Positions 5,073-6,502 of a DNA stretch of 6,502 nucleotides are shown here, piece by piece (within the stretch, counting starts at the first letter, position 1; each line of letters starts with the position of its first letter). The translations under genes and the position numbers were made by a program. A model generated the notes under the pieces. That model was given only the letters and a program-made list of their open reading frames with translations. It had not been told where the DNA came from and searched no databases. Origin of the DNA: a virus (Duplodnaviria > Heunggongvirae > Uroviricota > Caudoviricetes); IMG/VR virus record IMGVR_UViG_2711768006_000011, one strand, 5' to 3'.

Positions 5073-5102
5073 ATTCTATTCCGGCACCATCTAAAACTTC
5101 AA
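5073..5102 (-). promoter_or_regulatory. Candidate sigma70 promoter for the 93-aa / DUF968 / rusA / Q gene string
   Basis: Minus strand TTGAAG (5097-5102), 18-bp spacer, TAGAAT (5073-5078), located between the hok terminator and the 93-aa ORF. By-eye match only. Confidence 0.3.
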
Positions 5103-5110
5103 ACGCGTTG

Positions 5111-5142
5111 AAAATAAAAACAAAAACCCGCCGAAGCGGGTT
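5111..5142 (-). terminator. Rho-independent terminator with UUCG tetraloop, 3' of hok
   Basis: Minus-strand RNA AACCCGC-UUCG-GCGGGUU followed by UUUGUUUUUAUUUUC. Confidence 0.85.
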
Positions 5143-5210
5143 AAGTGTGGGTGCATTGAGGATGCCTGCCCCATCAGAGGTGGCGAGGGATTTCTCCCCC
5201 GCCTGGTCTC

Positions 5211-5366
5211 TTACTCCTCAGGTTCGTAAGCTGTGAAGACAGCGACCTCCGTCTGGCCGGTTCGAATTCGTACCTCGCAGAGGTCTTTCCTCGTTACCAG
5301 TGCCGTCACTATGACGGTTAAACAGATGACGATCAGGGCGATTAACATCGCCTTTTGCTGCTTCAT
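5211..5366 (-). CDS. hokD: Hok/Gef-family type I toxin (HokD/RelF-like), 51 aa
   Basis: MKQQKAMLIALIVICLTVIVTALVTRKDLCEVRIRTGQTEVAVFTAYEPEE has the hydrophobic helix plus conserved RKDLCEV..R.G..EVA.F.AYE core. ATG at 5366 is preceded by AAGGAG at 9 nt. The tool frame extends in frame to ATG 5423 (70 aa), which I treat as an upstream in-frame extension, not the toxin start. Confidence 0.9.
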   Translation of the reverse strand: MKQQKAMLIALIVICLTVIVTALVTRKDLCEVRIRTGQTEVAVFTAYEPEE

Positions 5367-5542
5367 AGCCTGCTTCTCCTTGCCTTTCGGCACGTAAGAG
5401 GCTAACCTAGATTTGCCGTTCATAGATTGAGCCTCAGATTAATGTTAAGCGTCTTGCCGGACGCGTAATGTTAACTGGGGCTTTTCTCTATCTGCCTTTT
5501 GGTGTTCATGCCTGAGACAGATAGCCTCAAGCACCCGCTGCA

Positions 5543-5570
5543 ATTCTACTTAACTCTCCTTTTCCCGCAA
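5543..5570 (-). promoter_or_regulatory. Candidate promoter for the hok mRNA (-35 TTGCGG, 16-bp spacer, -10 TAGAAT)
   Basis: Minus strand TTGCGG (5565-5570), 16 bp, TAGAAT (5543-5548); would give a leader of about 170 nt before the hok start. By-eye match only. Confidence 0.3.
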
Positions 5571-5657
5571 ACCGTTTTTATCCCCAGCGGCAAATCGAAT
5601 ACACCACCAGCGCCACCGCCATCGCAATTCCTACCGTTGTTAATGCTTCAGGCCAGG

Positions 5658-6002
5658 TCATCGTAAAATATCCTCCACGCTTATCAGTCCGTTCCGCTCC
5701 AGATAACTCATCGCCTTATCCGGTAATTTGCAGTCTGGCTTCGCTTTCCTCAGTTGCCAGGTTAACTGCTTTACCAGCATGGTTAACTCATCGACCAGAC
5801 GCTGATATCCCACTGGTTTGTATTCATGCAATTTACCGGCTGGCTCTGCTGCCAGCGATACCAGTGCGATTTCCAGAACAGCAATATCCATCTTATATGT
5901 GCGGATGATGTCATGGTCGATTGTGCCCGGTATGCACAGTCTCTGTGCTTCAATAGTCTCCTCTGCGTGAGCTATTAACTGCTCTCTGGTAAAAGTCGTC
6001 AT
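5658..6002 (-). CDS. Hypothetical prophage protein, 114 aa; paralogous in its N-terminal half to the upstream 55-aa gene
   Basis: ATG at 6002 overlaps the upstream stop (ATGA). Begins MTTFTRE and contains [16 protein letters not shown], paralleling MTTITKE and [16 protein letters not shown] in the neighbour. Confidence 0.6.
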
Positions 6003-6166
6003 GCCGTAGCCCCTTCTTGATATTTTTCAAACCAGAACACAACCGGCTCTGCTTCCAGCGATGCCAGCGCAATCCGTGCCAGTTCCATTTGTTCACCACG
6101 GGTAAGCCCGTTTTCAAGCGGGTTTTTAATGAACAATTCAATACGTTCTTTGGTAATAGTGGTCAT
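5999..6166 (-). CDS. Hypothetical small prophage protein, 55 aa (below the ORF-track cutoff; found by manual translation)
   Basis: Minus strand TTAAGGAGTAACAC-ATG gives a strong Shine-Dalgarno; translation [55 protein letters not shown]; stop overlaps the start of the 114-aa gene. Confidence 0.6.
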
Positions 6167-6176
6167 GTGTTACTCC

Positions 6177-6375
6177 TTAACCCGCAGTGCTTTCAACTGA
6201 TGAGGGGAACAAAATCTTTTCATCAAACCCTGCATTCATATCATGAACAGCAACACACCAATCCATCGACGAACGATTATCAAGAGCCTCCATGATTTCA
6301 TCCATGCGGCGTAGGTCATACAGGTAAATGCTTTTATCGCCAATGGTGTAAAAGCCAATTTTTTTCGGTGATGGA
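6177..6375 (-). pseudogene. 3' remnant of a prophage gene truncated by the IS insertion (chimeric ORF with an IS-supplied start codon)
   Basis: The tool ORF 6177-6407 starts inside the IS end; the first 10 codons (MVVSAIASTP) are IS-derived. The frame stays open across the 6375/6376 junction and stops at 6177, just before the Shine-Dalgarno of the 55-aa gene. Confidence 0.45.
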
Positions 6376-6502
6376 TGAGGTGTACTGGCAATAGCGGACA
6401 CTACCATTTGTTCTTTTTTTAAGCAGCCATCTGATGATATTTTTCCCTGAAGGCTGCCGGGGAGATATTCCCCAGACGAGAGTGACGACGCTGACGATTG
6501 TA
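6376..6502 (-). mobile_element. IS3-family insertion sequence, right end (partial), inverted relative to the copy at 1-127
   Basis: Exact reverse complement of 1-127; transposase C-terminal fragment at 6419-6502 on the minus strand. Confidence 0.65.

Follow-up and report, generated by a model that had tools for sequence, protein, structure and literature searches.

Tandem EaA-type genes upstream of hokD in a lambdoid prophage remnant

Two small genes encoding proteins of 55 and 114 residues lie directly upstream of hokD in a viral DNA segment assigned to the Caudoviricetes (IMG/VR record IMGVR_UViG_2711768006_000011; 6,502 nucleotides, hereafter the window). An earlier note on this DNA, made from the letters of the sequence, had pointed out that relBE occupies this position in the Qin prophage of Escherichia coli K-12, and had read the small overlapping genes as a possible toxin–antitoxin or anti-defence pair. 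The locus therefore raises the question of whether the two genes form a dedicated pair and, if they do not, what kind of genes they are. Our analysis indicates that both ORFs are very probably EaA-type mosaic genes in a non-essential early accessory array of a lambdoid prophage remnant, located between the replication genes and the hok/sok–nin segment. The coordinates of the features are given in Table 1.

Table 1. Features of the window that are relevant to the two genes. (−), minus strand.
Feature	Position	Strand	Basis or remarks
IS600 (IS3 family) 3' ends	1–127 and 6376–6502	inverted	Perfect 127-nt copies bracketing the window
STnc100 sRNA	306–495	(−)	Full-length match, 123.6 bits; beside the Ile-Arg-Arg tRNA cluster
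Terminator-like site by hok	5125–5142		Computed scan
hok/sok locus	5211–5536	(−)	hokD CDS 5211–5366 (PF01848, E = 3e-23); leader/sok 5361–5536
27-aa hydrophobic ORF	5578–5661	(−)	Start overlaps the stop codon of the 114-aa ORF in ATGA; translation
114-aa ORF	5658–6002	(−)	Diverged N-terminal hairpin, linker, C-terminal helical module
C-terminal module of the 114-aa protein (~residues 66–114)	5661–5807	(−)	Homologue comparison
Second motif copy (codons 45–54 of the 114-aa ORF)	5841–5870	(−)	Direct repeat
55-aa ORF	5999–6166	(−)	EaA-type N-terminal hairpin module (codons 1–41) and 14-codon tail of HNH-gene origin
Tail plus stop of the 55-aa ORF	5999–6043	(−)	HNH gene tail; travels with the 114-aa gene
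Motif and crossover point (codons 32–41 of the 55-aa ORF)	6044–6073	(−)	Direct repeat; overlap of the P22-like and ArgO145-like blocks
Shine–Dalgarno sequence AAGGAG of the 55-aa ORF	6173–6178	(−)	Read from the sequence; inside the block common to P22 eaa
87-aa accessory gene, 3' part	6177–6375	(−)	phrog_1714, E = 5e-37, profile positions 21–87; 5' end cut by IS600

The gene pair and its surroundings

The window is an early-right/nin segment of a Rac/Qin/Stx-like lambdoid prophage that has been reduced to 6.25 kb between inverted copies of IS600. On the minus strand, the IS600 end is followed by the 5'-cut 87-aa gene, the 55-aa gene, the 114-aa gene, the 27-aa ORF and hok/sok, then by a rem-like gene, a DUF968 gene, RusA, antiterminator Q and a 65-aa winged-helix-like gene, and lastly by an N6/N4 DNA methylase, an Ile-Arg-Arg tRNA cluster with STnc100 and the inverted IS600 end. 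A tRNA cluster of this kind is typical of Stx-type prophages; here (526–651) it contains 126 bases masked as N, and because of this partial masking ARAGORN reported no tRNAs in the window. In two intact relatives, E. coli E7476 and phage vB_EcoS-689R5, the small genes lie behind the replication genes, on the right, where small ORFs are tightly arrayed, and the 87-aa gene is present in full. Between its lysis genes and the terminase, the E7476 prophage also has two paired genes, for a 'beta family protein' and an 'sce7726 family protein' (region L001, 3104–4733). In phage ArgO145 the cassette is found a few kilobases from int and shares its strand with the early-left genes; ArgO145 and Stx2a phages both carry it in the early-left accessory region near int. 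Of 5,426 complete E. coli genomes, 241 covered at least 80% of the 1.4-kb stretch 5100–6502.

The two ORFs share an ATGA at 5999–6002, which holds the stop codon of the 55-aa ORF and the start codon of the 114-aa ORF, and AAGGAG is placed 6 nt ahead of the ATG of the 55-aa ORF. The two ORFs, their 4-bp overlap, the strong Shine–Dalgarno sequence and the peptide strings quoted in the earlier note all agree with the sequence. Its proposal that the N-termini are paralogous is likewise borne out: in one single BLASTP comparison the two proteins were 33% identical over 54 residues (E = 1e-5), and both N-termini match the profiles phrog_60 (positions 116–165), phrog_660, phrog_3323 and phrog_5117. 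The similarity of the two proteins is beyond chance. Their shared motif is encoded by a 29-nt direct repeat (5842–5870 and 6045–6073) with 86% identity and a spacing of 203 nt. A description of the two genes as tandem paralogues over their N-terminal ~40–50 residues, translationally coupled and located upstream of hokD, is supported by these data. The 55-aa gene had a pN/pS of 0.27, the 114-aa gene one of 0.42 and the 27-aa ORF one of 0.50, with few polymorphisms behind each value. Given the first two ratios, both genes behave as coding sequence, and all three values would fit coding sequence under moderate constraint.

The right IS600 copy truncates the phrog_1714 gene and separates the small-gene array from its native early promoter, and the transposase of this copy has the same orientation as the small genes. 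Expression of the array in the window, where it is cut off from that promoter, is uncertain. A consensus scan of the minus strand from 5537 to 6502 gave no sigma-70-like site, and no convincing terminator-like site was found between the 87-aa gene and hok; the spacer between the preceding gene and the 55-aa ORF is 10 nt. Lacking a promoter-like site of their own and tightly packed through 4-nt ATGA overlaps, the two genes would, we propose, depend on a polycistronic early transcript and on translational coupling.

The 27-aa hydrophobic ORF that overlaps the end of the 114-aa gene is intact in ~72 of 80 loci. Its homologues (63–78% identical) are found behind unrelated genes, namely VT2-Sakai orf75, VT1-Sakai H0068 (DUF551) and the 'EaA' gene of Avunavirus 24-2-1, with the same overlap every time, and mosaic blocks terminate exactly at its stop codon. 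Matches to the ORF were obtained in 91 phage records, and its annotation is sporadic. N15 gp45.1 (18 aa) was considered as a homologue and rejected as unrelated. The ORF is probably a real gene for a small membrane protein, and it is flagged here as a conserved, rarely annotated membrane-peptide ORF of Stx and related phages.

The neighbouring locus combines a Hok/Gef peptide with a sok antisense/leader, the two components of a hok/sok type I toxin–antitoxin system; its sok region matches Rfam RF01794 at 112 bits (gathering score 59). A sub-threshold match to IsrK, a Salmonella prophage sRNA, was also recorded on the minus strand at 5121–5202, scoring 25.8 bits where the gathering score is 50 (E = 0.017). 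It overlaps the hok terminator region and is probably due to chance or to a shared terminator.

The EaA-type family and the origin of the 55-aa ORF

Searches of Pfam, NCBIfam and PADLOC with both proteins gave zero matches, and hence no family of toxins, antitoxins or defence proteins; sequence matches in the PDB were at chance level only (E ~0.4). PF13935 (Ead_Ea22), which P22 Ead matches at E = 9e-20, is matched by neither. Both proteins, however, carry the EaA-type module (MTTxTKE ... motif) at their extreme N-terminus. This hairpin family corresponds to PHROGs 60, 660, 3323 and 5117 and has no Pfam model. The 55-aa protein matches phrog_3323 (E = 1e-19) and phrog_60 (E = 4e-18), and the 114-aa protein matches phrog_660 (E = 8e-43), phrog_5117 (E = 3e-9) and phrog_60 (E = 1.5e-7). 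In tblastn searches, the N-termini of P22 EaA, HK620 HkaE and many 'DUF551 domain' or 'EaA' proteins were 86–93% identical to residues 1–44 of the 55-aa protein, the UniRef name of which is 'Eaa protein'. The earlier note could put a family name to neither protein; the 55-aa protein begins with the N-terminus of EaA, and both proteins are catalogued members of the EaA-type family.

A two-helix hairpin was confidently predicted by AF2 in both proteins (pLDDT 82–95). In the 55-aa protein the helices comprise residues 6–14 and 23–38 (pLDDT 82–94) and the tail has a pLDDT of 50–56. In the 114-aa protein, helices at residues 6–26 and 30–51 (pLDDT 86–95) are followed by disorder at 53–64 and by helices at 65–87, 95–103 and 109–113. 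Generic helical hairpins were the sole matches in fold searches. A family profile consisting of the hairpin plus the C-module matched 1,827 clusters at 50% identity, with proteins of 55–457 residues, and the general layout is a hairpin of ~40–50 residues followed by exchangeable parts (DUF550/MazG-like, DUF551, a KPDCKLPD module and others). With at least 1,800 clusters at 50% identity, the EaA-type family is a very large, never characterised group of accessory proteins of lambdoid phages, and literature searches on EaA, DUF551 and ea-region functions gave no functional data on it. The hairpin may serve as a handle for oligomerisation or target binding, and the modules behind it may be variable effector parts; the hairpin's function, if determined, would annotate thousands of phage genes in one go. 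By analogy with the lambda exo-xis and P22 ea proteins, EaA-type proteins may be dispensable modulators of host or phage rather than a toxin or an antidote; like other early accessory genes, theirs might conceivably contribute to counter-defence or host modulation.

The 114-aa protein is composed of a diverged hairpin (residues 1–54), a disordered linker and the C-module (~66–114). The C-module is almost unchanged across 42 homologues that differ in their N-terminal and middle parts, and is also present in N15 gp45, H19J, ST64B and the Rac phage; its coding sequence always ends in CGATGA, regardless of the next gene. The exact 114-aa sequence (named 'Prophage protein') and the exact 55-aa sequence were each found on at least 1000 contigs, and in Shigella sonnei the exact 55-aa and 114-aa proteins are listed under adjacent locus tags. 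In rare assemblies, frameshift variants among the homologues have the 55-aa and 114-aa ORFs fused into one protein (P0001, P0002 and P0024; 137–168 aa), and in P0011 and P0029 the 114-aa ORF is fused to the 27-aa ORF. These fused variants could be true mutations or assembly errors.

The 55-aa ORF falls into two blocks. From position −15 to codon 40 its DNA is 92% identical to P22 eaa and then diverges completely, and from codon 37 to its end it is 98.5% identical to the tail of the HNH gene of phage ArgO145. In ArgO145 this HNH gene precedes the 114-aa gene, and the C-terminus of the endonuclease consists of the same 15 residues as the tail of the 55-aa protein. In 18 of 80 loci this tail likewise closes an HNH endonuclease, and in the 55-aa protein it also matches the HNH profile phrog_2118 (positions 252–275). 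The P22-like and ArgO145-like blocks overlap at the motif. A P22-type front block and an ArgO145 HNH-type end block mark the 55-aa ORF, judged by its DNA, as a recombination chimera that was joined inside the motif and has two nameable parents.

Recombination at the motif and the readings of the pair

The hairpin identical to that of the 55-aa protein was found fused to many unrelated continuations straight after SLEAEP. The 177 loci gathered contain ten hairpin classes and 15 downstream classes in 27 different combinations, and one of the downstream classes is shared by six hairpin classes. The DNA core of the motif, CTGGCATCGCTGGAAGCAGA, is almost invariant, including its synonymous sites, whereas the flanking Ala/Pro codons vary freely; the Chi site GCTGGTGG was not seen in the motif DNA when this was checked by eye. 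A protein of 101 residues from S. sonnei and E. coli (P0031) consists of residues 1–37 of the 55-aa protein and residues 51–114 of the 114-aa protein. Loss of 203 nt between the repeats at 6045–6073 and 5842–5870 accounts for this protein, which is a natural fusion of both window genes. As read from these joints, crossovers between members of the EaA-type family cluster at the hairpin-terminal motif, the 20–29-nt coding DNA of which is near-invariant. Gene ends show similar behaviour, with the constant CGATGA of the C-module and the mosaic blocks that close at the stop of the 27-aa ORF. The locus is a clean small example of how accessory genes are built, with a crossover motif, a two-parent chimera and a natural deletion between tandem copies.

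The mosaic joints would have been formed at the short shared motif by relaxed homologous recombination involving phage Rad52-like recombinases. In experiments, such recombinases generated mosaics between lambdoid phages and the defective Rac, Qin and DLP12 prophages on short, diverged homology (PMC3945230). The nucleotide conservation of the motif could result from protein constraint plus frequent recent exchange, without a selected role in recombination. A further-reaching proposal is that the DNA core (20–29 nt) for A-L-A-S-L-E-A-E-P is kept partly as a recombination linker for swapping hairpins and effector modules among lambdoid accessory genes, and that products reduced to the hairpin, the 55-aa protein among them, act on paralogues via hairpin–hairpin binding; we consider this improbable.

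What the two genes do together can be weighed against their neighbourhoods. In a dedicated toxin–antitoxin or anti-defence pair, one protein would neutralise or assist the other, and the small sizes, the strong Shine–Dalgarno sequence, the ATGA coupling and the adjoining hok/sok addiction module would all suit such a pair, as would the location, early accessory regions of temperate phages being known sites of counter-defence genes. The partners, however, are interchangeable. Of 80 viral contigs with a 114-aa gene of at least 99% identity, 58 have a gene of the 55-aa type upstream of it, 18 an HNH endonuclease gene and three a 61-aa hairpin variant, so that the neighbourhood analysis called for by the earlier note identifies the 55-aa gene as a frequent rather than an obligate partner. 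Other close relatives of the 114-aa gene lie behind an HNH gene (92% identical) or, without an overlap, behind a DUF7167 gene (89% identical), and the hairpin of the 55-aa ORF is borne by dozens of other proteins. ATGA overlaps occur at every gene boundary of the array, whichever the neighbour; the 55-aa ORF is a chimera with an HNH-gene tail; and the natural deletion merges both genes with the loss of one copy. Of the properties of a type II toxin–antitoxin system, conserved co-inheritance is lacking in these 80 contigs (58, 18 and three upstream genes of the types above), a promoter or operator belonging to the pair was not found in the consensus scan, and no known toxin or antitoxin fold or family was matched in Pfam, NCBIfam, PADLOC or the PDB. 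The toxin–antitoxin architecture suggested in the earlier note is thus not supported, because the partners are swapped, the 55-aa ORF is chimeric, the spacer ahead of it is short, promoter-like sites and toxin, antitoxin or defence matches are lacking, and the same cassette occurs in both early-left and early-right regions. We regard a dedicated pair as very unlikely, which removes a false lead: the pair is no new toxin–antitoxin or defence system.

The chimeric origin of the 55-aa ORF also bears on whether its product does anything at all. The ORF may be a non-functional recombination scar, leaving the 114-aa gene, perhaps with the 27-aa peptide, as the only working gene, and the constraint on the 55-aa ORF would then be borrowed from full-length EaA genes through repeated exchange. 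The low AF2 confidence of its tail agrees with this, as do a hairpin-only gene of phage g341c annotated as 'Truncated P22 EaA protein' and numerous short ORFs (46–97 aa) made of a hairpin plus a random tail. On the other hand, the 55-aa ORF is intact, with its strong Shine–Dalgarno sequence, in 58 of 80 loci and on the many contigs noted above, and its pN/pS is low. Moreover, P0230 and P0240 are hairpin-only ORFs of two other hairpin classes with the same tail, which suggests that the hairpin-only format is tolerated or kept. A scar is therefore a possibility that we hold to be doubtful, and recombination may have left the 55-aa protein as a by-product that is tolerated. Alternatively, the hairpin could mediate hetero-oligomerisation, with the hairpin-only 55-aa protein regulating the 114-aa protein and paralogues from the same operon as a dominant-negative form or an adaptor. 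Operons with several hairpin genes, such as that of vB_EcoS-689R5 (146-aa, 55-aa and 114-aa genes), and the confident hairpin predictions for both proteins are in line with this, but the hairpin interiors are just ~33% identical and the co-occurrence of the two genes is not conserved, and such a regulatory role seems to us quite improbable.

Comparison with known systems

As EaA-type mosaic genes, the two ORFs are best compared with P22 EaA (eaa, 317 aa), a gene of the early-left ea region, and with its HK620 HkaE and 'DUF551 domain-containing' relatives. The first ~41 residues of the 55-aa ORF, its Shine–Dalgarno sequence and the 15 nt upstream belong to the same block as P22 eaa, and like it the window genes are non-essential early accessory genes. 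In P22 EaA, the hairpin is followed by a dATP/dGTP pyrophosphohydrolase domain (PF04447) and DUF551 (PF04448), the domains that characterise the full-length protein; in Pfam searches both are missing from the two window proteins. The 55-aa ORF instead terminates 14 codons past the motif, and the 114-aa ORF has another C-module. The locations also differ, with the window genes in the early-right operon upstream of hok and P22 eaa beside int–xis.

N15 gp45 (139 aa) has the same two-part layout as the 114-aa protein. Its hairpin starts with MITITKEWL and ends in KLASLAVD, and its C-module, ELTMLVKRL..AKPDSKLPDDAMSYL..GLIRIEDILR, has the same CGATGA end as that of the 114-aa gene. Other members of this C-module family are found in the ST64B Sb31/32 region, in H19J and in HP4 of the Rac phage. 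In contrast to the 114-aa protein, the middle segment of gp45 is longer, and the overlapping gene downstream, gp45.1, bears no relation to the 27-aa peptide.

The lambda exo-xis proteins (Ea22, Ea8.5 and Orf60a/61/63) resemble the window proteins in being products of small, early, dispensable and highly mosaic lambdoid accessory genes. Lambda Ea22 is a modular protein, built from a short N-terminal domain, a coiled coil and a C-terminal domain that varies, and it influences the lysis–lysogeny decision (PMC10834534, PMC7093339). The likeness of Ea22 to the window proteins is one of kind; in the Pfam search they did not match its family PF13935.

Finally, the assignment of the pair to the relBE slot of K-12 Qin in the earlier note is confirmed by gene order: Qin has rem–hokD–relE–relB, and the window has the rem-like gene, hokD, the 114-aa gene and the 55-aa gene. 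In both cases two small overlapping genes lie directly upstream of hokD, but the window genes have no homology to relBE. relBE forms an operon that is autonomous and autoregulated, whereas no promoter-like site was found for the window genes themselves. What follows the cassette also varies. In ArgO145 the 114-aa gene and the 27-aa ORF are followed by an annotated toxin–antitoxin pair on the opposite strand (L003, 4550–5061) instead of hok/sok, so the slot downstream of the same cassette takes different addiction modules. Homology to K-12 begins just 14 nt upstream of the hokD ATG, where relE abuts hokD, and because it stops there the K-12 hokD is a truncated form. In K-12, relBE replaces the hok leader and sok, while the window keeps both intact. 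Since the full leader and sok are present in the window and absent from K-12, the relBE arrangement of K-12 is probably the derived state.
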